A stretch of 31,625 bases of DNA from NCBI GenBank assembly GCA_040905425.1, contig JBBDRO010000032.1:1-31625 (forward strand), in the 5' to 3' direction. The stretch is from Gemmatimonadota bacterium. GTDB taxonomy: Bacteria; Gemmatimonadota; Gemmatimonadetes; Longimicrobiales; RSA9. This document shows, one piece after another, positions 2,363-31,625 of the stretch; within the stretch, counting starts at the first letter, position 1; every line of letters starts with the position of its first letter. Below the pieces are notes generated by a model. The model had not been told where the DNA came from, ran no database searches, and saw only the letters and a program-made list of their open reading frames with translations. The translations under genes were made by a program, and so were the position numbers.

Positions 2363-4990
2363 CTATTTATCAATTTCCCATCCATACGGCTCGTATCGAA
2401 GCCGTTTGGCACCAAGCCGGTACTCCCAAACGCCACCGCCCACATCGGCGCCGTCCCTGAGGACCGGATCCCGGAGATCAATCTCCGAACCGGCAAGATC
2501 GTTCACCCTTACGTCAACGAAGCTCGCCACCTCCTTCAGGGCGAACCAACATGGCGCCGGAGGATCCAAGCGGACCCTCACGGAATCATCGCCCAGCCGC
2601 GTACGAATCCTCAATTCATCGCGGAAGCGCGTGGCGTTGCAAGGATAGGTCAGATCGAAATCCAGCGTTGCGTCCCGTGCGAGCAGTTCCTGGCCCATGC
2701 CCCGGCCCTCCACTTCATCGAGCACCACGTCCCAGCCGTCCTCTTCCCGCAACCTCTCCAGATTCTCGAGATGGTAAACCGCCTCGATCAACTCGCGGCT
2801 TTGGTCCGGTAAGCGAATGGTTGCCCGGTCAACGACCAGGCGCCGTGTGAGTTCGAGCGCCGGTTGGTGCTGGTACACAGTGCCCCACCCATGCGAGCCC
2901 CGATATTTCCTCTGAGGCTTGAACCCTGCCGGAGGAACGAGAATGATGGCTCGAGGCTGGGCAAAGGAGATTGGACGCAAGGGATCGCGGCCTCGGTGTC
3001 GATGGAGCCGCCCGATCCGCTGAATCAGGACCTCGATTGGCGCCAGGTCCGTGACCAACAGGTCGAAGTCCAGGTCGAGACTCTGCTCAACCACCTGCGT
3101 GGCAATGAGAATGCTCCCATCGGTTGACCTCGCGCCCTTGCCGAAGCTAGCAAGGATGGATTCATCGAGGTGCTTCCGGTCCGCAGGTGCGTACCGCGCG
3201 TGATATGGTGGGGTCAGGCTGCTCCCAGGTGGACTCCACAGAAGGCCACCGCCGCCCAGCGTGGCAAGGTCCAGGACGCTGCGCTGTGCGTCCTTTACCG
3301 TATTGCGAAGCAGGCAAACCCGAGCGCCAGCCCGCGCGGCCTCGATCGCGAACTTGAATCCATCGGCCTCAGAGGATGTCATCCAGCTCACTTCGCGGCA
3401 CGCCGCGTTTCCATCAACGGCTGTATCACGCCAATCTCCACCGGGCTCGAATACGGCCATCGTGGGATAGGCTCGGTCCACGGCTTCCTGCGCCGTCGAT
3501 TCGTCGGATCCTGAACCGAGCAGACCTCGGGCTTGCGCCGAGAGCGTGGCGGACATTAACACGGCCGTGCCTCCCGCCGCAGAGTGGAATTCGAGCAGTT
3601 GGCGGAGCACCGTCAGCATGTAGAGGTCATGGGAGTGCACCTCATCGACGACTAGCAAGAGGCGTGTAGCCCCAGCAAGCCGCAGATGCGCGTGCTTCAC
3701 AGCCAGCGCGGCAAGCAACACCTGATCCACCGTCCCCACGACCACCTCCGCCGCCAAAAACTTCTTCGCATGACTTGATGACCAATTCGCCAATCCGAAA
3801 GGCGCCTCTCCCTCCTGGTCATCGTGGCGATTCGATTCGGCCGCCAAGGCGTGATTCGCAGCGCGCAACTCGGGCGCCTCGCCACCGATCGCCAGCGTAA
3901 TCCCTGGCGCTTCTTCGTCGTACATGCCATGAAGGGCATCAGCGACCCGGTCCGTCATGGCTCGCGCCGTGGCACGGGTAGGGAGCGCGAAGAACAGACC
4001 GCCGACCCGACCCTCTGCTCGCAATCGGGCATACAGCACAAGCGCCGCTTCCGTCTTACCAGACCCAGTCGCCGCCTCAATCAGGATACGGCTTCCCGGC
4101 CGAGGCAACGGTGTTGCCGCGGCGTGCGCCTGAAGCTGTGTAGGCGTGTTCGGTTGGCCAGATCCGAAGACAGTGGGAAACAGGTGCGCGTACAGATCCC
4201 CTGATCCCAATCTAGCCACCGGTCGTGAAGCGACGACGCCGATTGCGCGACACGCCCTATCGGCCCGCTCCGTGGCGACCTCCCAATACGCGGCCGGGTC
4301 GTCGTCGGCTGCAGGACTCGGCGCAAATGCCTCCTCCGTGGAGCCGATCCAATCCGCCAGGGTAATGAGTCCGGCTAGCAGGTGGGAGAAGCGTGGATCG
4401 TCGGGGAGGCTGTCAAGGCGAGCCATCCTGCTGAGCCCGCTCCAATCCGCGGCCAATAGGCCGATCCTCCGCACTTCATCCAGCGGCTGGCGCCCTCCGA
4501 GCGAAGCGGTCCACAGCTCGCCAAGTCCCTCGCGCGAGCGGCTTGCCAATGCCTGCGGATCGAATGGCCGGCCATGGTGCGCTACCGTGGTAGCGAGGAG
4601 GTCCAGTGGGTTGGCGGATTCGATGGAGATGACCGGATTCAGGATTCCGGAGATCGCCTCCACGAAGGGCTGGAAAGCCAGCGATTCGAGCACGACCTGC
4701 ACATGCCCCTCAGGACGGCGCCTGTTCCTGCCAGGAGCACGCTCCTGGAATCCGTGATTCGCCTTGCCGATATCATGGAGTCCGGCGAGGAAGGTCACGA
4801 ACGCCGCCAGTGGCGGCTGGAGCCCCTCGGGCCCAGCGAGCGCGCTCAGGCGCGCGTTCAGTCGCGAATCCGGCTCTAAGAGGCGGGCGGCAACCGCAGC
4901 CACGTCTGCCGAGTGGGCCACCAATGGATGCCAGCGACCGTCATCGTTTAGCTTGGCCCAGAACGCTGCATCGTAGAGCATGCTTGACAT
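2363..4990 (-). CDS. cas3: CRISPR-associated HD nuclease-helicase Cas3 (type I-E)
   Basis: N-terminal 'FWAK...HPLVAHSADV' and 'LHDIGKA' HD motifs, Walker A 'ATGSGKT', 'DEVH', 'MSAT', 'HARY', 'ATQVVEQSLDLDFD', 'QRIGRLHRH'. ATG 4990 follows AGGAG; ATG 4981 or GTG 5020 are alternative starts. Confidence 0.96.
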   Translation of the reverse strand: MSSMLYDAAFWAKLNDDGRWHPLVAHSADVAAVAARLLEPDSRLNARLSALAGPEGLQPPLAAFVTFLAGLHDIGKANHGFQERAPGRNRRRPEGHVQVVLESLAFQPFVEAISGILNPVISIESANPLDLLATTVAHHGRPFDPQALASRSREGLGELWTASLGGRQPLDEVRRIGLLAADWSGLSRMARLDSLPDDPRFSHLLAGLITLADWIGSTEEAFAPSPAADDDPAAYWEVATERADRACRAIGVVASRPVARLGSGDLYAHLFPTVFGSGQPNTPTQLQAHAAATPLPRPGSRILIEAATGSGKTEAALVLYARLRAEGRVGGLFFALPTRATARAMTDRVADALHGMYDEEAPGITLAIGGEAPELRAANHALAAESNRHDDQEGEAPFGLANWSSSHAKKFLAAEVVVGTVDQVLLAALAVKHAHLRLAGATRLLLVVDEVHSHDLYMLTVLRQLLEFHSAAGGTAVLMSATLSAQARGLLGSGSDESTAQEAVDRAYPTMAVFEPGGDWRDTAVDGNAACREVSWMTSSEADGFKFAIEAARAGARVCLLRNTVKDAQRSVLDLATLGGGGLLWSPPGSSLTPPYHARYAPADRKHLDESILASFGKGARSTDGSILIATQVVEQSLDLDFDLLVTDLAPIEVLIQRIGRLHRHRGRDPLRPISFAQPRAIILVPPAGFKPQRKYRGSHGWGTVYQHQPALELTRRLVVDRATIRLPDQSRELIEAVYHLENLERLREEDGWDVVLDEVEGRGMGQELLARDATLDFDLTYPCNATRFRDELRIRTRLGDDSVRVRLDPPAPCWFALKEVASFVDVRVNDLAGSEIDLRDPVLRDGADVGGGVWEYRLGAKRLRYEPYGWEIDK

Positions 4991-5019
4991 GCCGCTCCTG
5001 CTAGCCCAGATTGGAGCCA

Positions 5020-5057
5020 CGTAAACTGCTTAATGGTTTACGATGTATGGTAAGAAT
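5020..5057. promoter_or_regulatory. AT-rich divergent promoter region of cas3 and the Cascade operon, containing a palindrome and the mini-array target
   Basis: Inverted repeat CGTAAAC-N9-GTTTACG (5020-5042). Overlapping -10-like hexamers TATGGT (+, 5046-5051) and TACCAT (-, 5047-5052). No convincing -35 boxes found. Confidence 0.55.
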
Positions 5058-5146
5058 CTGATCCTGGCACGTGCCGGGGTAGCCCAGGTTTGCGCTGGAT
5101 GGTGGACGAAAAGCCTGTAATTCCCTGCGTCTGCGGGGCGATATCC
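5058..5146 (+). ncRNA. Degenerate mini-CRISPR (pseudo-repeat / spacer / pseudo-repeat); candidate CreR/CreA-like regulatory crRNA-like RNA
   Basis: 5058-5085 CTGATCCTGGCACGTGCCGGGGTAGCCC is 19/28 identical to the array repeat and keeps the hairpin (CCTGGC-ACGT-GCCGGG). 5117-5146 contains CCCTGC-GTCT-GCGGGG. The two stems are 60 nt apart, versus 61 in the array. The spacer matches 5035-5051. Confidence 0.8.
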
Positions 5147-5322
5147 GGTGGGCAGCCGAACTGATCATTCGGCCGTGGACGGTGGGTTCCAAACCCATCG
5201 TCCGCCCTGCCCGGGGCGCTACGGTTATCACAGACTGCCCGTAACGCCAGTGGCACTCGTTAGCTTGCGTCTCATCAGACCAATCCCGATGTTCGGCATT
5301 CACCCTCCAGAGGGACTACGCT

Positions 5323-6897
5323 GTGAACCTACTCGATGCTGAGGTCATCACCGTAGCAGGTGTCGACGGCACGGACCGGCTGTCTCTTCCCGATTTGCTT
5401 GCCCGGCTGTTGGTGGGGCCCGAGATTCTTGGGTGCCCACGGCTCGCCGCCGAGCAGCGTTCATACTGGTGGCGGTTTCTCGTCCGCTGTGCAGCGCGGG
5501 CGCTCCGCACGGCTGATCTCACGGTATCACAGGCCACCCACACCGACAACGTCCAACTCGCTACGGTGGTCCGCGAAGCGCTGCTGAAGCACACCGAGCG
5601 CGCCGATTGGGAGCTTTTCCAGCCGGATCCGTCCAGCGCAGGTTTCCTGCAACCGCCCACGCCGGGAGGCGTAACGCCGGCCGACGATAAGTACAAGCGC
5701 TGCACGTGCGCGCTTCTGACGGCCGTGATCGGCACCAAGGAACATGAGCGAAAGTCTGAGGTGGGGCGGGTGCTCGACGCCGAATCCCTGGTCTACGCGC
5801 TCGTGGAGTACCAGTCAGGTGTGATCTTCGGCGGGCGTGGCAATTACGAGAGCCAGTTGACCGGGTCACGCGCCGGAGCCGGCAGCGGGACGCCGTTCAT
5901 GGGCGCGACCATCAATAATTCCATGCTTGATACGTTTCGTCATGACGTGGGTGTTCTGCTCGGGAACTGGGAACGGACGGCCAGGGACCTGAAGGGCGAC
6001 GTGTGGGCGCTCTGGGCCCATCGTTGGGACGGCGAAAAGCCCCTCCCCGCAGCCCAACTCGACCCGGCGTTCATACCGTTGGCCCGGATGGTTCGTGTCG
6101 GTGCTCCCACGGAGGGAGAGTTTGGCACGGTCTGGTTCCGAGGGTCACAGGGCAGCCGAGTCGCAGATCACACGAACGGCGGGCACCTTGGCGACCCGTT
6201 CACGCCGCTCGTGCCCGATCCAAAGGGTGGTCACCTGAAAGTTCGTGGTACGCTCGCCAAGGGCTACGATTACAAGGAGGTGGTACGGCTGCTCTTCCCG
6301 GATACCAACGAGGAGGCGGTGCCATCGCCGAGCGTCGTCGCCGTGCTCGACGCGCCCCCTGAACGTGAGCTTAGGGTGCTATTCGAAGGCATGGCCTTCG
6401 AGCAGGGCAAGACTCGAGGCTTCCACCGGCGGAGCGTGCGGTTACCCCGCAAGGCGGTGCAGGTTGGCATCGGATTTCGGTCCGAGCCGATCCATGCAAT
6501 ACACAGGATCATGCTGGACCGCACGGCAGACTGCAAGCGTGCCCTAAGCTCGGCTCTAGCCATGCTCCTAACAGGAGAGCCACGGTTGCGGGACGATGAT
6601 CGGGCCAAGGCCCAGACGGCGCTAGATCGGTTCGAAGAACTCGTGGATCGGAATTACCTGGACTTTCTCTTCCGGCTGGCCTTTGACGGTGAGTCAACCG
6701 GGGACACCGAGCCGTACCGACGATGGCTCTTCGAGCAGGCCGTTGAGGAAGTCTTGCCGGAGGCGTTTCGATCGCTGCCGCGGAACTCTGGCCGTCGACT
6801 AGAGCAGGAGGTGATCGCCGAGGCTTACCTGCGGGGAAGGTTGAGAAAGGATCTCGACCTGCCTGTGGCTGATTCACGCCAGGAGGTTACTGCATGA
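5323..6897 (+). CDS. cas8e: Type I-E Cascade large subunit Cas8e (Cse1/CasA), divergent
   Basis: N-terminus 'NLLDAEVITV...RLSLPDLL' resembles Cse1 starts. 524 aa, first gene of the cse2-cas7-cas5-cas6e operon. GTG start after GAGGG. Confidence 0.85.
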   Translation: MNLLDAEVITVAGVDGTDRLSLPDLLARLLVGPEILGCPRLAAEQRSYWWRFLVRCAARALRTADLTVSQATHTDNVQLATVVREALLKHTERADWELFQPDPSSAGFLQPPTPGGVTPADDKYKRCTCALLTAVIGTKEHERKSEVGRVLDAESLVYALVEYQSGVIFGGRGNYESQLTGSRAGAGSGTPFMGATINNSMLDTFRHDVGVLLGNWERTARDLKGDVWALWAHRWDGEKPLPAAQLDPAFIPLARMVRVGAPTEGEFGTVWFRGSQGSRVADHTNGGHLGDPFTPLVPDPKGGHLKVRGTLAKGYDYKEVVRLLFPDTNEEAVPSPSVVAVLDAPPERELRVLFEGMAFEQGKTRGFHRRSVRLPRKAVQVGIGFRSEPIHAIHRIMLDRTADCKRALSSALAMLLTGEPRLRDDDRAKAQTALDRFEELVDRNYLDFLFRLAFDGESTGDTEPYRRWLFEQAVEEVLPEAFRSLPRNSGRRLEQEVIAEAYLRGRLRKDLDLPVADSRQEVTA

Positions 6898-7418
6898 TCG
6901 ATGTAGCAGGCGGCCAAGCTGCCGCACCGACTTTCTCTGAACAGGCCGTAAGGATCGCACGGGCCCTGGAGGAGGGATACTCCGGTATCCCGATGAGCCG
7001 TGGCGATCGGGCGGAGCTGCGGCGCATGCGCGGGGACGTCGCCTTCCCACCGGAGGCGTTCTGGCGGGTCGTGGGCACATTCAACATCACGCCGGGCGAG
7101 GAACCGTTCTGGCGCGATGTGATACCGCTCATGGTCGAACATGCGCACAAGGGAAGCGTGGCGCCGGGCCTGGCGGCTGCCCGTGCCGGCGTGTCTCCGG
7201 CTCGAGTGGAGCGCTGGCTACGGCGGCCAGCGGAAGATGCGCGTAAGGAAGCACGGCGCCTCCTATCCAAGGTGGATGACGGGCTGCACTGGGGTTGGTT
7301 TGCCAGCCTGCTTCGTTTCTGGACGGATGAAGGCCGCACGCGGTTCGCACGGGACTACTTCCTGTCTCCCGAATACCGCAACCGAACACGCCAACACAAA
7401 GCCGAGGAGAGTGCATGA
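6894..7418 (+). CDS. cas11: Type I-E small subunit Cas11 (Cse2/CasB)
   Basis: 'GDRAELRR', 'VSPARVERWL' and C-terminal 'RFARDYF' are Cse2-like. 174 aa, ATGA overlap with cas8e. Confidence 0.88.
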   Translation: MIDVAGGQAAAPTFSEQAVRIARALEEGYSGIPMSRGDRAELRRMRGDVAFPPEAFWRVVGTFNITPGEEPFWRDVIPLMVEHAHKGSVAPGLAAARAGVSPARVERWLRRPAEDARKEARRLLSKVDDGLHWGWFASLLRFWTDEGRTRFARDYFLSPEYRNRTRQHKAEESA

Positions 7419-8578
7419 TGGGACGGCCGCAAGGAGATATGGTTCAGGTGCACATGCTGACGGCGTATCCGGCGGCCCTGCTGAACAGGGACGACGCAGG
7501 GCTGGCAAAGCGGGTTCCGTTCGGCGGTGCGGTGCGGACGCGAATCAGTTCGCAGTGCCTCAAGAAGCACTGGCGCGAGTCTCCCGGAATCGCCGATCTC
7601 GGCGACCTAGCGGTCCGCAGCACGCGCGTGTACGAGCGCGAGGTTGCGCGGCCCCTCATGGAGGAGCACGGCGCCACTGAAACAGAGGCCGTGGCGATCG
7701 CGCAGTGGCTGATGAACCAGTCGGTCGACACCAAGCCCGCCGCGAAGGAGACCGGACTCGAGGCGGCCCAGAGCGGCCAGCTTCTGGTGCTCACCCGCTC
7801 GGAGGTTGAATTCCTGCAAACGCGAGCCGCGGCTCTCCTGAAGGAGTTGCGCGCGGCCGGAGTCGAGGTAGCGAAGCCGGGAGATGTCCCGAAGCACGCG
7901 GAACTAGCCAATGACACGGAGCTGCGTGCCACCCTTAAGGCGCTACCAGCATCGCTGGACACCGCCCTCTTCGGAAGGATGGTCACGTCGGACCTGTTCG
8001 CCCGTGTCGACGCTGCCGTGAGCGTGGCGCATGCGTTCACCACCCACGAGGAGGCGGCGGAGACCGATTACTTCACGGCCGTGGATACGCTGAAGAGTGG
8101 TGCGGATGACGCGGGCGCCGGGCTCATCCAGGACACGGAGCTCACCACCGGTGTGTTCTACCTGTACGCCGTGCTCGACATGAACCAGCTGCGCCATAAC
8201 TTGGTGGGCAACGATGACGGAGGGCTGCCCGATCGTCTGGCGCGCAATCTGGTCGAGGCAATGGCAACCGTGAGCCCCGGAGCCAAGCGCGGTTCGACGG
8301 CCCCCTACTCCTACGCGGAGTTCGTGCTCACCGAGAGGGGCCCGGCTCAGCCTCGAACGCTGGCGAATGCCTTTCTCCAGCCCGTGTCGGCGAACGGGAC
8401 GAACGTGATGACAGCCTCGGCCAACGTGTTGATGGAGCACCGGGCACGATTGGACACGATGTACGGCGCCGCCAAGGTCACTGCCTCGCTGGCGTCGATT
8501 CACGCCGTCAAGGCAGAGGCGCCGGACCGGGTTTCGTTTCCCGAGCTGCTGGAGCGCACCTTCACCACGCCTGTGTAA
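7415..8578 (+). CDS. cas7: Type I-E backbone subunit Cas7 (Cse4/CasC)
   Basis: 'LLNRDDAGLAK', 'RTRISSQCLKKHWR', 'ALFGRM', 'VAHAFTTH', 'DYFTAVD', 'PRTLANAF'. Confidence 0.97.
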   Translation: MMGRPQGDMVQVHMLTAYPAALLNRDDAGLAKRVPFGGAVRTRISSQCLKKHWRESPGIADLGDLAVRSTRVYEREVARPLMEEHGATETEAVAIAQWLMNQSVDTKPAAKETGLEAAQSGQLLVLTRSEVEFLQTRAAALLKELRAAGVEVAKPGDVPKHAELANDTELRATLKALPASLDTALFGRMVTSDLFARVDAAVSVAHAFTTHEEAAETDYFTAVDTLKSGADDAGAGLIQDTELTTGVFYLYAVLDMNQLRHNLVGNDDGGLPDRLARNLVEAMATVSPGAKRGSTAPYSYAEFVLTERGPAQPRTLANAFLQPVSANGTNVMTASANVLMEHRARLDTMYGAAKVTASLASIHAVKAEAPDRVSFPELLERTFTTPV

Positions 8579-9303
8579 TGGCGACGACATCCTTCCTGGT
8601 GTTGCGGCTCGACGCGCCGATGCAATCCTGGGGTCGGGTTGCGATGGATCCGGTCCGGCCTACCCATAGCCACCCCACCCGCTCAGGCCTCGCCGGCTTG
8701 ATCGCCTCTGCGCTGGGATGGCGCTACCGCGATGGAGCGCGTACGACCGCGCTTCAGGACGCCCTACGGTTTGGCATCCGAGAGGATCGTCCCGCACGCA
8801 TCCTGCGCGATTATCACACGGCCGATCTGGGGCGTATCGGGCGGGAGAGCTGGACCCGATGGGGGATGGAACGTCGCGGCGGTGGTACGGCTGCATCGGG
8901 CACGCAGATTCTGGACAAGCACTACCTCGCGGACGCCGTATTCGTGGTGGTCCTCGGCCTCCACGATGGTAGCCCTGTGGATCTTGACGAAATTGCGCAG
9001 GCGCTTCGTACCCCTGCCCGCCCGCTCTTCCTAGGGCGGAAGGGGTGCCTACCCGCAACGCCCATTCTTGTGGGCGAGGTCCAGGCGCCGAACTCGTTCG
9101 AAGCTCTGGCCGCGTGGCCGACCGATTCACGCTCCTCCATCCGCGAAGTGCAATGCTGGTATCAAGATGGTGACGGTCCAGCAGAAGGTGAGCCCGAGGA
9201 GATCTGGGACCGTCGCGACTTCGTCACCGACCGATTCGCCGGCTCTCGCATCGTGCGACGCCATCGCGTGCGTCCCGCGGCGCCCCGCCCAGCCGAGGAG
9301 TGA
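8578..9303 (+). CDS. cas5: Type I-E Cas5 (CasD)
   Basis: 'LRLDAPMQSWG', 'PTRSGLAGLIASALG', 'DYHT', 'YLADA', 'LFLGRKGC'. 241 aa, no extra C-terminal domain. Confidence 0.96.
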   Translation: MATTSFLVLRLDAPMQSWGRVAMDPVRPTHSHPTRSGLAGLIASALGWRYRDGARTTALQDALRFGIREDRPARILRDYHTADLGRIGRESWTRWGMERRGGGTAASGTQILDKHYLADAVFVVVLGLHDGSPVDLDEIAQALRTPARPLFLGRKGCLPATPILVGEVQAPNSFEALAAWPTDSRSSIREVQCWYQDGDGPAEGEPEEIWDRRDFVTDRFAGSRIVRRHRVRPAAPRPAEE

Positions 9304-10025
9304 ACATGAACAGGCCGCACATTTCTGAGGCCGTCCTGGCACTGGATCCTGCACGTGCCGCACGCGGTGCCACGCGGCCCTATCTGGTGCATCAGCTTGT
9401 TGCCGATCTTTTCGGAGAGTTCGAGCGCCGTCCGTTTCTGTACCGTGAGCAGGAAAGCAAGGGTACGTCGCAAACTGTGCTCATCCTTTCGTCTACTGCC
9501 CCGCTAGCTCCAGAGGAAGTTCCCGTGAGAGATGTGGGCGTTGTGCGCTCCATCCGTTCAAAGCCGTTCGTGGTGGATGTGCCGCCTGGTACCATGCTCG
9601 ACTTCGAAATCAGGCTGAACGCAACCAAGGATGTTCCTACCTCCAAGGGAGCGAGATCGAAGCGCATGGATGTGTGGGAGGCAGTGTGGCAGGAGCATCC
9701 GGAGACAACTCGCTCACCTGAACAGGTTTACGGAGAATATCTACAGCGCAAGCTCGACGGCGCCGGCAAAATGGGCGCTTGCGCCCTCGTGGCGCGAGGG
9801 CTTGTGCGGGCCCGCAAGCAGCTGTCCGGCCCCAAACCGATCACCTTCGTGGCTGCCGATCTGATTGGCACGATGGAGGTCACGGACCCGCATGCGCTTG
9901 TGGCTGCTGTTTCCGGGGGCATGGGGCGCGCCAAAGCCTTCGGCTGTGGTTTGATGTGTCTCTCGCGGCCGGGAACGGTCCTGCCACGCCGTCACCCCGA
10001 CGCCGCTCGTGAACTGTACGGGTGA
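9300..10025 (+). CDS. cas6e: Type I-E crRNA-processing endoribonuclease Cas6e (Cse3/CasE)
   Basis: 'YLVHQLV' (His), 'FLYR', 'FEIRLNATK', Gly-rich loop 'GMGRAKAFGCGLM'. Start is GTG 9300 or ATG 9306. Confidence 0.95.
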   Translation: MNMNRPHISEAVLALDPARAARGATRPYLVHQLVADLFGEFERRPFLYREQESKGTSQTVLILSSTAPLAPEEVPVRDVGVVRSIRSKPFVVDVPPGTMLDFEIRLNATKDVPTSKGARSKRMDVWEAVWQEHPETTRSPEQVYGEYLQRKLDGAGKMGACALVARGLVRARKQLSGPKPITFVAADLIGTMEVTDPHALVAAVSGGMGRAKAFGCGLMCLSRPGTVLPRRHPDAARELYG

Positions 10026-10861
10026 TGCTGCAACTCAAGAATCGCCTCTCGTTCTTCTACGTACAGCGAGGTTCGCTGACCGTCGTTGATGGCTGTCTGG
10101 TGTTGACGGACAGCGACGATGCCAAGCAGTACGAGGTGCCCGCGCGGGCAACGGTGACCATCATGGTCGGGCCTGGGACAAATGTCAGCACCGAAGCCAT
10201 GAAGCTGGCTGGGCGATATGGGCTAACGGTGACCTGGGTGGGGGAGCAGGGAGTCCGGTGCTACTCGGCCGGGCGGTCGTGGTCGGATAATACCGAATGG
10301 CTCGAAAAACAGGTCCATGCATACGCCGATCCGAAGCTCACCTTGCAGGTGGCGCGTGAGATGTTCTACCGCCGCTTCGGCGTACGCATGGAGCGTCGGA
10401 GCGTGGACCAGCTTAGAGGCATTGAAGGCGCCCGGGTACGTGAATTTTACAAGCTCAAGGCGCAGGAGTATGGCATTCCCTGGAACGGTCGGCGATACAT
10501 CCCTGGGAATCCGCTTCGGGAGACAGACGCACCTAATCTGGCGTTGAACGTGGCCAACGTCTGCCTTTACGGTCTGGTCGAAACGGCGTGCCACGCCACA
10601 GGAATGAGTCCGGCGCTGGGATTCATTCACCGCGGGAAGTCTGTTTCGTTCGTGCTGGACATCGCCGACCTCTACAAATTTGAACACACGATTCCCCTCG
10701 CGTTTGGCGCCGTCGCAAAGAGGGGCCGCAACGCACGGGTGTGGCCAGGCCTGGAAGGCGACCTTCGGCGCGCTTCACGGGATCATTTCCGTAAAACGTC
10801 CCTCTTGGAGCGAATCGTAACCGACATGACGGGGTTGATCGATGCTGGTGTTGGTTCTTGA
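10022..10861 (+). CDS. cas1: Type I-E Cas1 integrase (short C-terminus)
   Basis: 'VGPGTNVSTEA', 'WVGEQGVRCY', 'QLRGIEGARVR', 'WNGRRY', 'LGFIHRGKSVSFVLDIADLYK' with catalytic E/H/D equivalents present. Confidence 0.97.
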   Translation: MMLQLKNRLSFFYVQRGSLTVVDGCLVLTDSDDAKQYEVPARATVTIMVGPGTNVSTEAMKLAGRYGLTVTWVGEQGVRCYSAGRSWSDNTEWLEKQVHAYADPKLTLQVAREMFYRRFGVRMERRSVDQLRGIEGARVREFYKLKAQEYGIPWNGRRYIPGNPLRETDAPNLALNVANVCLYGLVETACHATGMSPALGFIHRGKSVSFVLDIADLYKFEHTIPLAFGAVAKRGRNARVWPGLEGDLRRASRDHFRKTSLLERIVTDMTGLIDAGVGS

Positions 10862-11162
10862 ATGCGCCCCGCCGAAAGTAGTCGGTTTCTGTTCGTCGTG
10901 GGCCCTTCAGATCGCCACGGGAGTGTATGTGGCGAACCTTCCACGCAGGGAGATGGAAGAGATCTGGGAGCAGATCGTCGACTGGGCGGATGAACAAACG
11001 CGGATTGTCATGGTCTGGGATTCACCGGCCACTGAACAGGGTCTGGAACACCGGCTTTTCGGCAAGCCTCGACGTACCGTCACCGATCGTGAAGGGCTCC
11101 TCATCTCGACATGGTCGCCCCGTCTCCAAGATGACCTCGCGGAACCCGAACAGACCCCGTAG
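10842..11162 (+). CDS. cas2: Type I-E Cas2 (no DnaQ fusion)
   Basis: 'MLVLVLECAPP...W...GVYV...IWEQI...EQG...G..RR..D.EGL' pattern. 106 aa, overlaps the cas1 3' end. Confidence 0.93.
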   Translation: MLVLVLECAPPKVVGFCSSWALQIATGVYVANLPRREMEEIWEQIVDWADEQTRIVMVWDSPATEQGLEHRLFGKPRRTVTDREGLLISTWSPRLQDDLAEPEQTP

Positions 11163-11213: not shown

Positions 11214-14200
11214 GTGAGCCCCGCGCCTGCGGGGGTGGGCCGGAGCGCAAGCGGAACCAGGCGGCGTTTGCGGGGTGAGCCCCGCGCCTGCGGGGGTGGG
11301 CCTGCCACTTTGCAGCCGGGCGTTGCGCACCTCCGGTGAGCCCCGCGCCTGCGGGGGTGGGCCGATCGTGGCCACCTGGACATCCGGGACAGGCGCGTGA
11401 GCCCCGCGCCTGCGGGGGTGGGCCCGAGGTGGACTTCTCGAAGGCGGGCGTGGTCAAGTGAGCCCCGCGCCTGCGGGGGTGGGCCGCCAGCACCGTCTCC
11501 CGCTCGGCCGACCTGCTCGTGAGCCCCGCGCCTGCGGGGGTGGGCCTCTCGTCGTCTGCCGCACCCTGATTGATCGTGAGTGAGCCCCGCGCCTGCGGGG
11601 GTGGGCCGGACGTTGCCGACATGAACGCCGATGCCATCATGTGAGCCCCGCGCCTGCGGGGGTGGGCCTTGGACAGACGTGCGGGTGAAGTGGCTGCGCT
11701 CGTGAGCCCCGCGCCTGCGGGGGTGGGCCCCTGTGGGCAGAACCGCTACTCGAAGACCTGGAGTGAGCCCCGCGCCTGCGGGGGTGGGCCCTTTCAGCAC
11801 TGCGCGCACGTCACGTTCTTCCCGTGAGCCCCGCGCCTGCGGGGGTGGGCCGGCGTCACCCTCCGACCTCGCGCGGAGGCTGCTGTGAGCCCCGCGCCTG
11901 CGGGGGTGGGCCTGTGACGCACCGCGCGCGCGCCCCCCGCATGCGGTGAGCCCCGCGCCTGCGGGGGTGGGCCCCTGGCGAGCTACCGTGCTGCTCCACC
12001 CTGCTAGTGAGCCCCGCGCCTGCGGGGGTGGGCCCGCGGGAGGCCGCCGTCCTGGAGGAAAACATCCGTGAGCCCCGCGCCTGCGGGGGTGGGCCTCCTG
12101 CCGTGCAGGGGCCAGCCGTGTTCCCACCGTGAGCCCCGCGCCTGCGGGGGTGGGCCGCGCACGTACTCGCCCGACTGGAAGTTGCGCGCGTGAGCCCCGC
12201 GCCTGCGGGGGTGGGCCCTTCAACGACACCGTGGCGGTGGGCGACGGCGAGTGAGCCCCGCGCCTGCGGGGGTGGGCCGCCATGTCAGCGCCTCCCCACG
12301 AGTGCGGCAATGTGAGCCCCGCGCCTGCGGGGGTGGGCCGGTGGCCATGGCGGCCGATGCGCTGGACCGCGCGTGAGCCCCGCGCCTGCGGGGGTGGGCC
12401 GCTCCATCCCATGTCGAAGGGGATCCTCAGCCGGTGAGCCCCGCGCCTGCGGGGGTGGGCCGCCGCAACGGGTTTCGGGAGTTTAGCGCAACAAGTGAGC
12501 CCCGCGCCTGCGGGGGTGGGCCTGGCTGTGGCCTGGATGGTGGCCAGGTCTACCGGTGAGCCCCGCGCCTGCGGGGGTGGGCCCTGGTCTACATAGGCGC
12601 GCAGCACTTCGACTGCGTGAGCCCCGCGCCTGCGGGGGTGGGCCCGGTTGCCATCTATGCCCCCAGAATCAGTATGTGTGAGCCCCGCGCCTGCGGGGGT
12701 GGGCCCACGTTCGGCACGATCCGCGTCCAGAGCGCGCAGTGAGCCCCGCGCCTGCGGGGGTGGGCCTTGAGTAGCCAAGCCGCCGTCGTCCCTGACCGTG
12801 TGAGCCCCGCGCCTGCGGGGGTGGGCCCCGAGAACGCCTATGGCCACTTCAAGGGCGATGGTGAGCCCCGCGCCTGCGGGGGTGGGCCGGTGCCCCAACA
12901 TGACGCCTGCGGCGCTCGGAGGTGAGCCCCGCGCCTGCGGGGGTGGGCCTTCTGCCGGGTCATGTCGCTACCCCCTCCCGCTGTGAGCCCCGCGCCTGCG
13001 GGGGTGGGCCTCATCAAGGGCGCGGTGTCGATGGAGAACGCGAGTGAGCCCCGCGCCTGCGGGGGTGGGCCGGTGGCAGGGGAGCCGGAGGCGGAAGGCG
13101 TCGAGTGAGCCCCGCGCCTGCGGGGGTGGGCCTCAGGGTGCGGCGGACGACGAGATCCTGGCGTTGTGAGCCCCGCGCCTGCGGGGGTGGGCCTTCGTCG
13201 GACGTGTCCGGGGACGCCGAGTTCAAGTGAGCCCCGCGCCTGCGGGGGTGGGCCTGGCGACCGCGACGGACGGCGTAGCTATCACACGTGAGCCCCGCGC
13301 CTGCGGGGGTGGGCCTGAGCTGTACGCCGCCGCCAACCAGGTCGGCTTGTGAGCCCCGCGCCTGCGGGGGTGGGCCGGGTAGAGAACGTGGAAAAAATGA
13401 TGCGTGACGGTGAGCCCCGCGCCTGCGGGGGTGGGCCGACGAAGTGGCGGAAGTCGTGGACCTGCGGGCAGTGAGCCCCGCGCCTGCGGGGGTGGGCCTG
13501 TCTGCTGAGTGCGTCATCGTCACTCCAGGGGGTGAGCCCCGCGCCTGCGGGGGTGGGCCCCACCAGCCACAACCACCCGGCGCTTTGCCTCACGTGAGCC
13601 CCGCGCCTGCGGGGGTGGGCCCTGCACCGTGAAGGTTCTGCCACAGGTGGGGCAGTGAGCCCCGCGCCTGCGGGGGTGGGCCCGCTTCCAGCCGATCCTT
13701 CCCACATGGTGCCACGTGAGCCCCGCGCCTGCGGGGGTGGGCCCAGGTCGCGCACCGGAAACTTGAGGCGCTTGTGGTGAGCCCCGCGCCTGCGGGGGTG
13801 GGCCGGCTGCACGGTCGCTCGGGGTTACGAAGGGGTAGTGAGCCCCGCGCCTGCGGGGGTGGGCCGTCGACTTGTCATGTTAAGATAGGCCCGGATTCGT
13901 GAGCCCCGCGCCTGCGGGGGTGGGCCTACATCATGTCGAGGATCGCGTTGACCGCGCCCGTGAGCCCCGCGCCTGCGGGGGTGGGCCAGGCGCACACATT
14001 GAGCGGGGGTAAGCTGTCGAGTGAGCCCCGCGCCTGCGGGGGTGGGCCGTCCTGAACGTCCAGACATACGGGCTCTCAACCGTGAGCCCCGCGCCTGCGG
14101 GGGTGGGCCCGTTGGCCGGCGATTCTTCGGCGCCGGCCACTTGTGAGCCCCGCGCCTGCGGGGGTGGGCCGGCATATGGGGCGCGCGCATGGGGCCGTGG

Positions 14201-17200
14201 CAGGTGAGCCCCGCGCCTGCGGGGGTGGGCCGCGTCCAGCGGTTGCTGATCGAGCCATCGTTGTGTGAGCCCCGCGCCTGCGGGGGTGGGCCTACTGCCT
14301 GGTTCATGCTTTACGCCTCCTGCAAGTGAGCCCCGCGCCTGCGGGGGTGGGCCGCTCTTCGGTCAGCTTGACCAGCTTCTCGGGTGGTGAGCCCCGCGCC
14401 TGCGGGGGTGGGCCTGCATAGGTGGCCGGCTTGCTGTACTTGTGATCGTGAGCCCCGCGCCTGCGGGGGTGGGCCCATGTACCATGGAGGGGGCACCACG
14501 ACGCTCCCGTGAGCCCCGCGCCTGCGGGGGTGGGCCGCGGGGTGCACACCCCGATCTGACACAGTGAACGTGAGCCCCGCGCCTGCGGGGGTGGGCCCGG
14601 AGACGAACTGTGACCAATACCGCAACCGCCGTGAGCCCCGCGCCTGCGGGGGTGGGCCTCAGGAGGCGTTTGATTTGACCGTGCAGCTCACGTGAGCCCC
14701 GCGCCTGCGGGGGTGGGCCGCAGGAAATAGGCAGGGAACAGGCGGCTAACCTGTGAGCCCCGCGCCTGCGGGGGTGGGCCGCCGCACTATCAGAGCCCAT
14801 CACAATCCAGCGGGTGAGCCCCGCGCCTGCGGGGGTGGGCCGCCGACCAGCCAGGCGGCCGAGATGGCGAAGAGGTGAGCCCCGCGCCTGCGGGGGTGGG
14901 CCTTTAGGCCATCGGCGCTTCCCGGTCACGTCCGGGTGAGCCCCGCGCCTGCGGGGGTGGGCCCGGCATCCGCCCGGCACGGATCGGCATCAAGCCGTGA
15001 GCCCCGCGCCTGCGGGGGTGGGCCGCGCGATCATCATTCACGAGCGGGGGTACCGATGTGAGCCCCGCGCCTGCGGGGGTGGGCCGTGCCATGCGCCACC
15101 AGCGCTCCGCATCCCTGAGTGAGCCCCGCGCCTGCGGGGGTGGGCCACGCTTTACCACCGGACGCTCCAGCGCGGCGGTGTGAGCCCCGCGCCTGCGGGG
15201 GTGGGCCTGGGGATCTGGAAGATGACACGATTAAGCTCCCGTGAGCCCCGCGCCTGCGGGGGTGGGCCCAGCCACTGTCGGGTGGGGGTGCGCCGCTTCG
15301 TGTGAGCCCCGCGCCTGCGGGGGTGGGCCGCGCACTCGGCATAGCCGGCCAGGTCAACCAGAGTGAGCCCCGCGCCTGCGGGGGTGGGCCGCTTGTTCTG
15401 CGCGCGCTTGGCCTCGCTCTTTGGTGAGCCCCGCGCCTGCGGGGGTGGGCCGCATCGTGAGCACGTGGACAACGAACTAGTTCAGTGAGCCCCGCGCCTG
15501 CGGGGGTGGGCCGTACAAGGAGATCGCCCCCGGGAACTACAACGAGTGAGCCCCGCGCCTGCGGGGGTGGGCCTCGTTCACGCGGCTGCCGGAAGCCAGC
15601 GCGCTCGTGAGCCCCGCGCCTGCGGGGGTGGGCCGCGGTAGCCGGCGCCAGCCTCACGGGCGGCGGCGTGAGCCCCGCGCCTGCGGGGGTGGGCCTGGCG
15701 ATCACGATCAGCGCTAGCTTGATCGCGTGTGAGCCCCGCGCCTGCGGGGGTGGGCCGACATGGTGACCACCCGCGGGGAGCTGTGGACGGTGAGCCCCGC
15801 GCCTGCGGGGGTGGGCCGCCCCCCTGGAGGCGCCGTGAAAAAGGCATCTAGTGAGCCCCGCGCCTGCGGGGGTGGGCCGCGTGTTGCCCATGGTGCTGGT
15901 CGTGGTCCGAAGTGAGCCCCGCGCCTGCGGGGGTGGGCCGAACACGAACCGCGCGCTGGCCAAGGCGAAGAAGTGAGCCCCGCGCCTGCGGGGGTGGGCC
16001 GTACGTCGGCGCAGCCACGGGCGGCGGGCCGGCGTGAGCCCCGCGCCTGCGGGGGTGGGCCTGGACCTGGGCAAGGCGCCCAAGATCACCGGCAGTGAGC
16101 CCCGCGCCTGCGGGGGTGGGCCGTGCGCGATCATGAGGGAGTGCAGCGTCATCAGGTGAGCCCCGCGCCTGCGGGGGTGGGCCGGACTTGGCCGACTGGC
16201 TGACCGCTCCGGACGCGTGAGCCCCGCGCCTGCGGGGGTGGGCCGGCCGGCGTGGTCGGCAAGGTGCTGGCCAACCTGTGAGCCCCGCGCCTGCGGGGGT
16301 GGGCCGACGAGGCCCTGATGGACGAGCTGGCGGCGGTCGTGAGCCCCGCGCCTGCGGGGGTGGGCCGACGTACAGCCTTCTCGACCTGACCGCGCAAGTG
16401 TGAGCCCCGCGCCTGCGGGGGTGGGCCGGTCGTCCAGTCGGTCGACTTCCAGGCGATGCAGTGAGCCCCGCGCCTGCGGGGGTGGGCCTGCGGAGTGCCG
16501 GGATGCGGGCACGTCATACGAGTGAGCCCCGCGCCTGCGGGGGTGGGCCCCCTGAGTGTGGGCCGCTACCGGAAAGCACAGGGTGAGCCCCGCGCCTGCG
16601 GGGGTGGGCCGTGGGCTGGGAGAACGCCAGCCAGCTCGGCGCCGTGAGCCCCGCGCCTGCGGGGGTGGGCCTAACCATACTCTCCAGGAGCGCCAGTGTA
16701 CGGGGTGAGCCCCGCGCCTGCGGGGGTGGGCCGTTTGCAGATGAGCTGCGAAACGGAATCGTCAAGTGAGCCCCGCGCCTGCGGGGGTGGGCCGCTTGCA
16801 CCGCGTCTCCGCCACGGAGTGCACGTGTGAGCCCCGCGCCTGCGGGGGTGGGCCCCCTGCCCGACCCGCAGGAAGAACGGCGACCACGTGAGCCCCGCGC
16901 CTGCGGGGGTGGGCCGGCGCCCTACATCACCGAAACGGGAACACTCAGGTGAGCCCCGCGCCTGCGGGGGTGGGCCTCATGGACCAGGGCGAACACCACT
17001 GGCAGGACGGTGAGCCCCGCGCCTGCGGGGGTGGGCCGAAAACAGGGGGACGAAATGAGCGAACTGAAGGGTGAGCCCCGCGCCTGCGGGGGTGGGCCGG
17101 CGTCCCAGATAATGCGCTCCAGCCAGTCCCCGTGAGCCCCGCGCCTGCGGGGGTGGGCCCGAGGATCAGGCCACACCGGCAGACGTAGAGGTGTGAGCCC

Positions 17201-17586
17201 CGCGCCTGCGGGGGTGGGCCCGAAAGACACCACATCCATAGCCACCTACCCACGTGAGCCCCGCGCCTGCGGGGGTGGGCCCCATATTTGGCGCTCCAAC
17301 ACCAACACACGGGCGTGAGCCCCGCGCCTGCGGGGGTGGGCCGCCGGCCACGTTCGTCGCTCTCGTGCATAAGCAGTGAGCCCCGCGCCTGCGGGGGTGG
17401 GCCCCATGATACTCGGACAGAACCCCGGCGAGGCGTGTGAGCCCCGCGCCTGCGGGGGTGGGCCGCCCTCGTACTCGGATTGAATCTCGGCCAGGTCGTG
17501 AGCCCCGCGCCTGCGGGGGTGGGCCTCGTGGAGTAGGTCTGCTATGTGCTGCTGTAGGGTGAGCCCCGCGCCTGCGGGGGTGGGCC
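11214..17586 (+). CRISPR. Type I-E CRISPR array: 105 repeats (GTGAGCCCCGCGCCTGCGGGGGTGGGCC, 28 bp), 104 spacers
   Basis: 61-bp period throughout (33-nt spacers), except one 34-nt spacer at 13560-13593. Hairpin CCCCGC-GCCT-GCGGGG. Orientation from similarity to the E. coli I-E repeat GTGTTCCCCGCGCCAGCGGGGATAAACC and from leader position. Confidence 0.99.
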
Positions 17587-30787: not shown

Positions 30788-30877
30788 GCGCCCGCCGCGT
30801 GGACGCGGCGGTCCTGCAGGTTTCTTGCGATGCGTCCCCGGGCCGATGGCGGCACCGGGACCACTACGAGGGAGGTC

Positions 30878-31625
30878 ATGATGGCCGCCAGGTCGAAGTC
30901 GGGGAGCGCCAGGAAGAGTACCGCTAAGAAGAAGGCGGCTGCGAAGAAGAAGGCGCCGGCTAAGAAGAAGGCGCCGGCGAAGAAGAAGACGGCCGCCAGG
31001 AAGGCGCCCTCGAAGAAGAAGGCGGCGGCCAAGAAGGCGGCGCCGGCGAAGAAGAAGGCGGCTCCTAAGAAGAAGGCACCGGCGAAGAAGAAGGCACCGG
31101 CCAAGAAGAACGCGGCCGTCAAGAAGAAGGCGCCCTCGAAGAAGAAGGCGGCAGCCAAGAAGGCGGCGCCGGTGAAGAAGAAGGCGGCGGCCAAGAAGAA
31201 GGTGGCCGCGAAGAAGAAGGCGCCGGTGAAGAAGAAGGCGGCCGCGAAGAAGAAGGCGGCGTCGAAGAAGAAGTCTGCTGCGAAGAAGTCCCCGAAGAGG
31301 AAGTCCACCGTGACGAAGAAGTCGGCCAGTAAGAAGGCCACTAAGAAGACGGCCGCCAAGAAGAAGGCGGCGGCGACGAAGAAGGCCCCGGCGAAGAAGA
31401 AGGCCCCGGCGAAGAAGAAGGCGACGCCGAAGAAGAAGGCGCCTGCGAAGAAGATGGCCCCGGCGAAGAAGAAGGCGACGCCGAAGAAGAAGGCCCCGCC
31501 GAAGAAGAAGGCGGCGCCGAAGAAGAAGGCGCCTGCGAAGAAGAAGGCCCCGCCGAAGAAGAAGGCACCTGCCAAGAAGAAGGCGCCGGCCAAGAAGAAG
31601 GCGCCGGCCAAGAAGAAGGCGCCGG
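30878..31625 (+). CDS. Histone H1-like Lys/Ala/Pro-rich protein (runs off the window end)
   Basis: GGAGG RBS then ATG ATG GCC…; MMAARSKSGSARKSTAKKKAAAKKKAPAKKKAP… with no stop before the edge, so it is absent from the ORF track. Confidence 0.85.
   Translation, partial: MMAARSKSGSARKSTAKKKAAAKKKAPAKKKAPAKKKTAARKAPSKKKAAAKKAAPAKKKAAPKKKAPAKKKAPAKKNAAVKKKAPSKKKAAAKKAAPVKKKAAAKKKVAAKKKAPVKKKAAAKKKAASKKKSAAKKSPKRKSTVTKKSASKKATKKTAAKKKAAATKKAPAKKKAPAKKKATPKKKAPAKKMAPAKKKATPKKKAPPKKKAAPKKKAPAKKKAPPKKKAPAKKKAPAKKKAPAKKKAP
30920..31625 (+). repeat. Degenerate ~18-bp tandem repeat encoding (P/A)AKKKA
   Basis: Recurrent CCGGCGAAGAAGAAGGCG-like units. Confidence 0.9.

Follow-up and report, generated by a model that had tools for sequence, protein, structure and literature searches.

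A degenerate mini-CRISPR array with its own partial target between cas3 and cse1 of a type I-E locus, a probable CreR-type autorepression element

In the stretch of Gemmatimonadota DNA analyzed here (31,625 nucleotides, contig JBBDRO010000032.1, referred to below as the window), a type I-E CRISPR-Cas locus has cas3 and the Cascade operon transcribed away from each other, and this raises the question of what the gap between the cas3 and cse1 genes encodes. An initial annotation placed the gap at 4991-5322, which agrees with the cas3 start codon that we assign (ATG at 4990..4988, preceded by the Shine-Dalgarno sequence AGGAG at 4999..4995) and gives it a length of 332 bp. We find that the gap holds a genuine degenerate one-spacer mini-array, psiR1-psiS-psiR2, which is separate from the main CRISPR array of the locus. 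With a probability that we put at roughly 80%, it encodes autorepression of the CreR type, in which the guide of the mini-array would park Cascade on the shared promoter region of the two operons. Because this kind of circuit is already published (CreR has been known since 2023), the locus would lengthen the list of examples without introducing a mechanism that is new.

The mini-array and a partial target for its guide

The first pseudo-repeat, psiR1 (28 nt, plus strand, 5058..5085), is identical to the main-array repeat at 19 of 28 positions and is followed at 5086 by an A in the place of the variable 29th base. The spacer-like guide psiS (31 nt, plus strand, 5087..5117) comes next, followed by the second pseudo-repeat, psiR2 (plus strand, 5118..5145), with 15 of 28 positions identical. 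The two pseudo-repeats stand 60 nt apart and both retain all six pairs of the repeat hairpin, which psiR1 maintains through a compensatory exchange of C-G for G-C (5066/5075). psiR1 further retains GGGGTAGCCC, part of the 5' handle, and psiR2 carries a hairpin of the Cas6e type (CCCTGC/GCGGGG, 6/6 pairs) with degenerate final bases. Both hairpins are present in the predicted minimum-energy fold, and the joint mini-array score of the window is 46, compared to 34-35 in four loci without a recognizable mini-array.

We aligned 26 repeats from the clade of related loci described below (8 main repeats, 9 psiR1, and 9 psiR2). In this alignment psiR1 conserves the ten bases at its end that make up the 5' handle, and psiR2 conserves the hairpin and loses the tail, a division also described for CreA and CreR (10.1101/2023.03.10.532045). 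The six-pair hairpin is paired in 94.2% of 156 cells, with 9 cells changed on both sides; none of 500 shuffles equals this level, and slid controls are paired at 42-59%. An Rfam search of 4950-5400 with E values up to 1 returned no family. In annotations, the label "regulatory mini-CRISPR" would suit the gap better than "orphan repeat".

One relative, L006, has a psiR1 (3739-3766) whose hairpin is lost (1/6 pairs) and whose handle, GGGGTGGGCC, is retained. The predicted transcription start lies ∼5 nt upstream of this psiR1, and the 5' end of the L006 guide may arise without Cas6e cleavage.

Two strong hairpins are predicted 3' of psiR2 on the plus strand of the window, at 5155-5173 and 5177-5203, and these may be a candidate 3' end or attenuator of the guide transcript. 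The second is a 12-bp hairpin, GGACGGTGGGTT / AACCCATCGTCC, with no T-run, and a look-alike is found at the equivalent place after psiR2 in L021 (∼5870-5895).

The partial target of the guide, a protospacer-like site at 5035..5051 of the plus strand, had been described as identical to guide positions 1-17 at 14 of 17 bases. Our comparison bears this out, with GGTTTGCGCTGGATGGT at 5087-5103, GGTTTACGATGTATGGT at 5035-5051, and mismatches at positions 6, 9, and 12. The reported loss of the match from position 18 also holds, as 29 is the only matching position among 18-31, and so do the flanks, with the protospacer-adjacent motif (PAM)-like AAT at 5032..5034 on the plus (nontarget) strand, directly 5' of the target, and CCA at 5084-5086 before the guide. 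The seed (positions 1-5 and 7-8) is fully matched at the target. In this orientation, a CRISPR RNA (crRNA)-like guide would pair with the minus strand of 5035-5051.

When the guide was shuffled with its composition preserved, 3 of 5000 shuffles reached 14/17 in the gap minus the mini-array, searched on both strands. No second 14/17 site is present on either strand of the window. The 14 constrained positions, GGTTTNCGNTGNATGGT, occur without mismatch in the 4.12-Mb assembly at the guide and the target only; six further assembly sites appear when 2 mismatches are allowed, against 4 for a control with the reversed pattern. A chance match is thus unlikely, given the shuffles and the assembly-wide uniqueness of the target.

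Covariation of guide and target in related loci

Relatives of the locus were sought by taxonomy and by sequence. The taxonomic searches covered 60 relatives together with the window's own genome and then 400 further genomes of the phylum, again with the own genome. Cse1 proved distant throughout these relatives (25-37% identity by tblastn). Their cas3 lies mostly on the cse1 strand, in most cases directly abutting cse1 and in four with a gap of ∼330 nt, the exception being L033, where cas3 is divergent across an 80-nt gap. The window's mini-array was absent from the type I-E loci of the relatives in both the 60- and the 400-genome searches. Sequence-based scans, in turn, gave three genome contigs (L005-L007) with Cas7 63-67% identical and sixteen metagenome contigs (L016-L031) with Cse1 47-58% identical. 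The titles of these clade contigs name metagenome-assembled genomes of Gemmatimonadota, Longimicrobiaceae, and Deinococcota, and L005-L007 have a divergent cas3, as in the window.

Upstream sequence is present in 19 clade loci, L016 being without it, and the mini-array sits at the same place in 10 of the 19 (the window, L005, L006, L007, L018, L019, L021, L029, L030, and L031). The detection script was run on 14 loci, giving scores of 40-56 for the ten mini-array loci and 34-35 for the four others, and L022-L025 and L027 were classed by eye as resembling the negatives L020, L026, and L028. Since L019 is nearly identical to L018, it was dropped, which leaves nine distinct mini-array loci.

A subclade made up of L020 and L022-L028 (Cse1 47-49% identical) has no mini-array and carries a codirectional gene upstream of cse1. 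These loci contain a conserved inverted repeat, CCACCC...GGGTGG, ∼100 nt before cse1 (3955-4010 in L026, for example), which may be a protein operator replacing the guide circuit. Distant type I-E loci of the same order (L035, L004, L036, and L037) have a single repeat-like hairpin ∼25 nt before cse1. The stretch before this hairpin matches a site 270-300 nt upstream, beside a TTGAC box, at 15 of 16 positions in L035 (1161-1176 and ∼1440-1479) and at 12-13 of 16 in L004, L036, and L037, with an ACGAC core in common; such a stretch could be a one-repeat variant of CreR or a protein site.

The initial annotation had predicted that guide and target would covary in homologues and diverge mainly at every sixth position, and both parts are upheld in the clade, where eight of the nine distinct mini-array loci have their own guide with its own target and mismatches concentrate at positions 6 and 12. 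For this comparison we used a seed-anchored score, which runs from guide position 1 with +1 for a match and -1.5 for a mismatch and skips every sixth position; it was adopted because a plain count over 17 positions misses short contiguous matches (L006 and L018). In the eight loci, cognate guide and target score 10-14, a value that is reached by 0-2 of 1000 shuffled guides (0/1000 for the window guide), and all 72 noncognate pairs of guide and region score 8.5 or less. The guides are dissimilar between loci. All eight targets are on the guide strand, upstream of psiR1 by 23, 23, 42, 40, 114, 13, 19, and 23 nt. The homology opens precisely at guide position 1, whereas the preceding 8 bases are identical at 16 of 64 positions, which is the random level. 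An onset this exact, beside flanks at the random level, speaks against both simple duplication and an operator for a protein.

The plain 17-position count recovers the same sites in six loci. In these, mismatches take up 11 of the 12 cases at positions 6 and 12, compared to 10 of 90 at the other fifteen positions (Fisher test, 2e-8). Every sixth base is left unpaired in Cascade-type pairing (PMC10120712), and the pile-up of mismatches at 6 and 12 is the known signature of such pairing.

The three bases before the eight targets are AAT in three loci, AAC in three, and TAC and TAG in one each, so that PAM positions -3/-2 read AA in 6/8 and TA in 2/8 of these related targets, and -1 is never A. 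A similar avoidance is seen in the main arrays. In the window array and those of L005-L007, L018, L020, L021, L026, L029, and L031, all with an interval of 33 nt, the 29th repeat base is G in 122, C in 98, T in 76, and A in only 10 of 306 cases. The 29th repeat base is PAM-derived in E. coli, and the type I-E system of S. thermophilus, with a 33-nt spacer and a 7-nt handle, uses an AA PAM. The rarity of A at the 29th base suggests a PAM of the type AA followed by a base other than A, with its last base carried into the array; if the 29th base is PAM-derived in the clade as well, this pattern and the AAT and AAC of the relatives would make the AAT of the window a putatively competent PAM. An additional avoidance of G at PAM -1 was considered and dropped, as G occurs in 1 of 8 targets against 40% G at the 29th base (binomial probability ∼0.1). 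Searches with the array led to no accepted protospacer: blastn of the entire array against 50,697 phage records yielded one weak match (82.6%), and the 400 further genomes of the phylum, taken together with that of the window, gave only short GC-rich matches near noise, several of them overlapping repeat ends.

Beyond the flipped positions, 7 of the 10 remaining mismatches fall at 9, 15, or 21, the centers of the 5-nt segments (permutation p of ∼7e-4, in a post hoc test that few loci underlie). The mismatches are at 6, 9, and 12 in the window, at 6, 9, 12, and 15 in L005, and at 6, 9, 12, 15, 18, and 21 over 23 nt in L007, whereas L030 and L031 deviate from the 9/15/21 pattern. On balance it is unlikely, but conceivable from these patterns, that the regulatory guides of the clade are more than short matches and are built on a 3-nt rhythm. 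If the rhythm is selected, it could be read as a design that binds and never locks, with an intact seed followed by blocks of 2+2 bases over 17-23 nt. A long, stable footprint would then span both divergent promoters, and the central mismatch of each segment, together with a PAM other than AAG (AAT/AAC), would keep the R-loop from locking and Cas3 from being licensed. Jung et al. reportedly observed in 2017 a 3-nt periodicity for the binding of E. coli Cascade in vitro, of which the clade, if the rhythm is true, would be an in vivo counterpart. Among the portions of the literature searched we found no statement of a 3-nt periodicity in Cascade binding, and the words "periodic" and "every third" are absent from the accessible text of both CreR papers (10.1101/2023.03.10.532045 and PMC10120712). 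A rule for 9/15/21 could guide the design of noncutting Cascade repressors and help to predict phage-borne guide mimics; phage mimics of CreR-type guides have been described in the literature.

The proposed circuit and its alternatives

Two candidate promoters for the mini-array were picked out by eye on the plus strand, both of them subthreshold. Candidate A (4984..5012) combines TTGACA at 4984-4989, overlapping the cas3 start codon, with a 17-nt spacer and CAGATT at 5007-5012. Under this promoter the target would lie ∼15-32 nt past the transcription start and Cascade would act as a roadblock. Candidate B (5022..5051) has TAAACT at 5022-5027, an 18-nt spacer, and TATGGT at 5046-5051, and here transcription would start at about the first base of psiR1, with the target covering the spacer and the -10 box. 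We infer that a Cascade footprint extending from 5032 onward would either occlude promoter B or block the guide transcript coming from promoter A. The initial annotation had named TATGGT (5046-5051, plus strand) and TACCAT (5052..5047, minus strand) as overlapping -10-like boxes. Both sequences are in place, and their role as working -10 boxes is putative; L007 has a perfect TATAAT on the minus strand (3555..3550) at the PAM-distal edge of the target, which is the place of TACCAT in the window.

In the related loci, clear TTGAC(A/T) -35 boxes run into the target or border directly on it, and a -10-like box is found 5-44 nt before psiR1. L006 has TTGACA and TACACT separated by 17 nt and ending 5 nt before psiR1, with the target overlapping the -35 box. 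L005, L029, L030, and L031 carry boxes of the kind TTGAC(T)/TTGCAC; in these loci a -10-like box runs at its end into the PAM and the start region lies under the target, while in L007 the target begins 4 nt after a pair of boxes with a 17-nt spacer, TTGACT and CATTCT.

On the other side of the site, counting upstream from the cas3 start codon of the window, the target takes up nucleotides 45-61. The cas3 start of L006 is ∼10 nt from the PAM, and that of L007 is overlapped by the -35 box. Given this proximity (45 nt in the window and ∼10 nt in L006), cas3 transcription must start in the site or cross it. Toward cse1, the 177 nt that follow psiR2 include the two strong hairpins described above, and conservation is seen only among L005, L030, and L031, which share a block 60-100 nt before cse1; this block has no convincing alignment to the window, and no second window promoter was assigned.

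The window and L007 also share a plus-strand -35-like TTGAC(A/T) box within the first cas3 codons (M-S-S and M-E-S-S, respectively), and ATGCTTGAC extends over the cas3 start codon in both (4981-4990 in the window and 3494-3506 in L007).

The circuit that we propose would begin at a promoter a short way upstream of psiR1, from which the mini-array would be transcribed rightwards. Cleavage by Cas6e at the two retained hairpins would release a crRNA-like RNA in which the 31-nt guide is flanked by a 5' handle from the repeat and by a 3' hairpin, and this RNA would load into Cascade. The complex would then read the AAT PAM at 5032-5034 and pair guide positions 1-17 with the minus strand of 5035-5051, with positions 6 and 12 flipped out and position 9 as the sole true mismatch. 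As pairing would end at position 17, the R-loop would stop short of the PAM-distal end and would not lock, leaving Cas3 unlicensed; R-loop locking is required for Cas3 recruitment, according to the literature. Cascade would persist as a DNA-bound block on or just past the promoter of the guide, which is probably also that of the Cascade operon by read-through, and cas3 transcripts would likewise start within the block or traverse it. The result would be a negative feedback in which more free Cascade leads to more repression. By analogy to Salmonella CreR, repression would weaken when ordinary crRNAs take up the Cascade pool or anti-CRISPRs block it. Of the mechanism put forward in the initial annotation, the guiding of Cascade to a PAM-flanked partial site is strongly supported by the covariation, whereas the repression of both operons is something that we infer.

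The type I-E CreR of Salmonella enterica is the tested case to which this circuit can be compared, as described by Liu et al. (10.1101/2023.03.10.532045). It repressed a GFP reporter 8.6-fold, and mutation of the guide abolished the effect; repression was Cascade dependent, proceeded without cleavage, was relieved by crRNA load and by AcrIE8, and was shown in E. coli. As in the window, a degenerate psiR1-psiS-psiR2 lies upstream of casA/cse1 with the handle of psiR1 and the 3' hairpin of psiR2 conserved, and the PAM-proximal part of the guide is partially complementary to a site within the region of the cas promoter, which in the window is a presumed one. Salmonella CreR, however, has 15 consecutive matches and an AAG PAM, compared to 14/17 with gaps at 6, 9, and 12 and AAT in the window, where 23 nt separate the target from the mini-array downstream of it and 45 nt separate it from the divergent cas3. 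Type I-E mini-arrays in the cas3-cas8 gap were reported for ∼19% of bacterial type I-E loci by Shmakov et al. (PMC10120712). The type I-E and I-F1 mini-arrays of that study share with the window a long cas3-cas8e gap, transcription away from cas3, a target flanked by a PAM (a putative one in the window), a seed beside the better-conserved repeat, and tolerance of mismatches at every sixth position. The target of the E. coli mini-array, with an AAG PAM, lies downstream next to Pcas, in contrast to the upstream target of the window (PMC10120712). In the type I-B CreA of Haloarcula hispanica, one target represses the divergent promoters PcreT and Pcas8 (10.1101/2023.03.10.532045), so that a single Cascade site between divergent promoters has the arrangement that we suggest for the guide/Cascade unit and cas3; that system is archaeal and of type I-B and its divergent gene is a toxin, whereas the partner in the window is cas3 and no toxin was recognized. 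The tracr-L RNA, which mediates autorepression of Cas9 (Workman et al. 2021, as cited in 10.1101/2023.03.10.532045), is likewise a noncanonical natural guide that makes an effector repress its own promoter, but it belongs to class 2, with a single protein and another RNA architecture.

This locus would add a well-supported case of CreR-type feedback from a type I-E clade whose members are uncultured bacteria. It contrasts with the tested cases in that the guide targets its own presumed promoter region, in that this region faces a divergent cas3, and in its PAM, AAT/AAC. The eight independent-looking pairs of guide and target amount to a natural experiment on the mismatches that are tolerated when Cascade binds without cutting; they indicate that positions 6 and 12 are free and hint at a further rule for 9/15/21.

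Several points weigh against autorepression. The promoter scan of 4900-5400 gave no sigma-70-like promoter at threshold, a search for sequencing runs over 4700-5700 listed none of RNA, the PAM is AAT where the Salmonella and E. coli cases put to the test have AAG, and guide position 9 is a true mismatch directly after the seed. The seed-anchored score was devised after the data had been seen, and the loci are not all independent, as L005 and L031 are related and their guides have the start TGTGGG in common. The mini-array of L021 has no significant target (score of 6.5, reached by 303 of 1000 shuffles). Moreover, the mini-array is missing in 9 of the 19 clade loci, so that the circuit would be dispensable, and L017, whose Cse1 is the second-closest relative found (54%), has no mini-array and a score of 35, which is background; the L017 contig is without a main array from which its repeat could be read. 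For L021, a target picked on visual inspection, with AAT in front of a 10-nt match that is interrupted at 2 and 6, was not counted, as the same 303 of 1000 shuffles are as good.

How much of the locus the site would control is a separate matter. It is possible, and on balance unlikely, that only cas3 and/or the guide respond and that the Cascade operon has its own promoter between psiR2 and cse1. The hairpins at 5155-5203 would then end the guide transcript, and this narrower reading is nested within the autorepression circuit and adds no probability of its own. The 177 nt between psiR2 and cse1 with their two strong hairpins are in keeping with this narrower scope, as are the block before cse1 in L005, L030, and L031, which could be a promoter, and the short distance of 45 nt between target and cas3 start (in L006, ∼10 nt separate this start from the PAM). 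However, the hairpins have no T-run and a scan found no terminator-like site, the promoter scan of 4900-5400 is empty at threshold here as well, and the conserved block has no convincing alignment to the window. In the tested Salmonella type I-E case, furthermore, the Cascade promoter is the regulated one (10.1101/2023.03.10.532045).

Other explanations would do without autorepression altogether. CreA elements look like CreR (10.1101/2023.03.10.532045), toxin-antitoxin genes are enriched beside type I-E mini-arrays (PMC10120712), and small open reading frames and structured RNA occur in 5043-5342, all of which would fit a CreTA-like addiction module whose guide represses a small toxin gene in the gap, making the loss of Cascade lethal. 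Such a module is nevertheless very unlikely, as the 23 nt between target and mini-array hold no gene, cas3 is the sole divergent gene, and nothing was found by Rfam in 4950-5400. The open reading frames of the gap are small and unconserved looking, and a toxin could in principle also be an RNA. The 17-bp copies could also be operators for a protein, and the repeat-like hairpins the remnant of a decaying array. The copies are direct repeats 52 bp apart from start to start, about five helical turns and on the same face of the helix, and the cas promoters of E. coli are controlled by H-NS, LeuO, and CRP (PMC10120712). We hold operators to be highly improbable, though, because in 8/8 loci the second copy starts at guide position 1 beside the psiR1 handle with random flanks (16/64), and because the repeated sequence is wholly different between loci while the pairing is maintained. 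The mismatches at 6/12, the AA found before the upstream copy only, and the variable spacing of 13-114 nt point in the same direction. A chance resemblance beside a nonfunctional array relic would fit the shortness of the match, 14/17 within a gap of 332 bp, and L021 is a case of a mini-array that has no significant target. The shuffle tests, the genome-wide uniqueness, the 7 further loci with different sequences, and the covariation of the hairpin make this explanation extremely improbable.

The type I-E locus around the gap

All eight type I-E proteins are matched by NCBIfam models, so that the gene set in the window is complete; Cse1 matches over its full length, with a score of 40.1 bits that is under the curated cutoff of 70.05 bits. 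cas3 (2363..4990, minus strand), encoding an HD nuclease and helicase, is divergent from the Cascade operon and matches the models Cas3 core, Cas3 HD, and PRK09694. The plus-strand operon (5323..11162), assigned with the NCBIfam type I-E models, contains cse1 (5323-6897), cse2 (6894-7418), cas7 (7415-8578), cas5 (8578-9303), cas6e (9300-10025), cas1 (10022-10861), and cas2 (10842-11162). It is followed on the same strand by the main CRISPR array (11214..17586), with 105 identical 28-nt repeats, GTGAGCCCCGCGCCTGCGGGGGTGGGCC, at a period of 61 nt; its 33-nt inter-repeat intervals open with a variable base, which is G in 50, T in 28, C in 25, and A in 2.

Two repetitive regions lie elsewhere in the window. 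Near its end (30836-31619), an 18-nt unit is repeated in tandem at least 22 times, probably as a repetitive coding region. Beyond cas3, a 602-amino-acid open reading frame (488-2296) contains five internal 75-nt (25-amino-acid) repeats and further repeats of 192-195 nt, and it gives weak TPR-like matches (YbgF and BamD).

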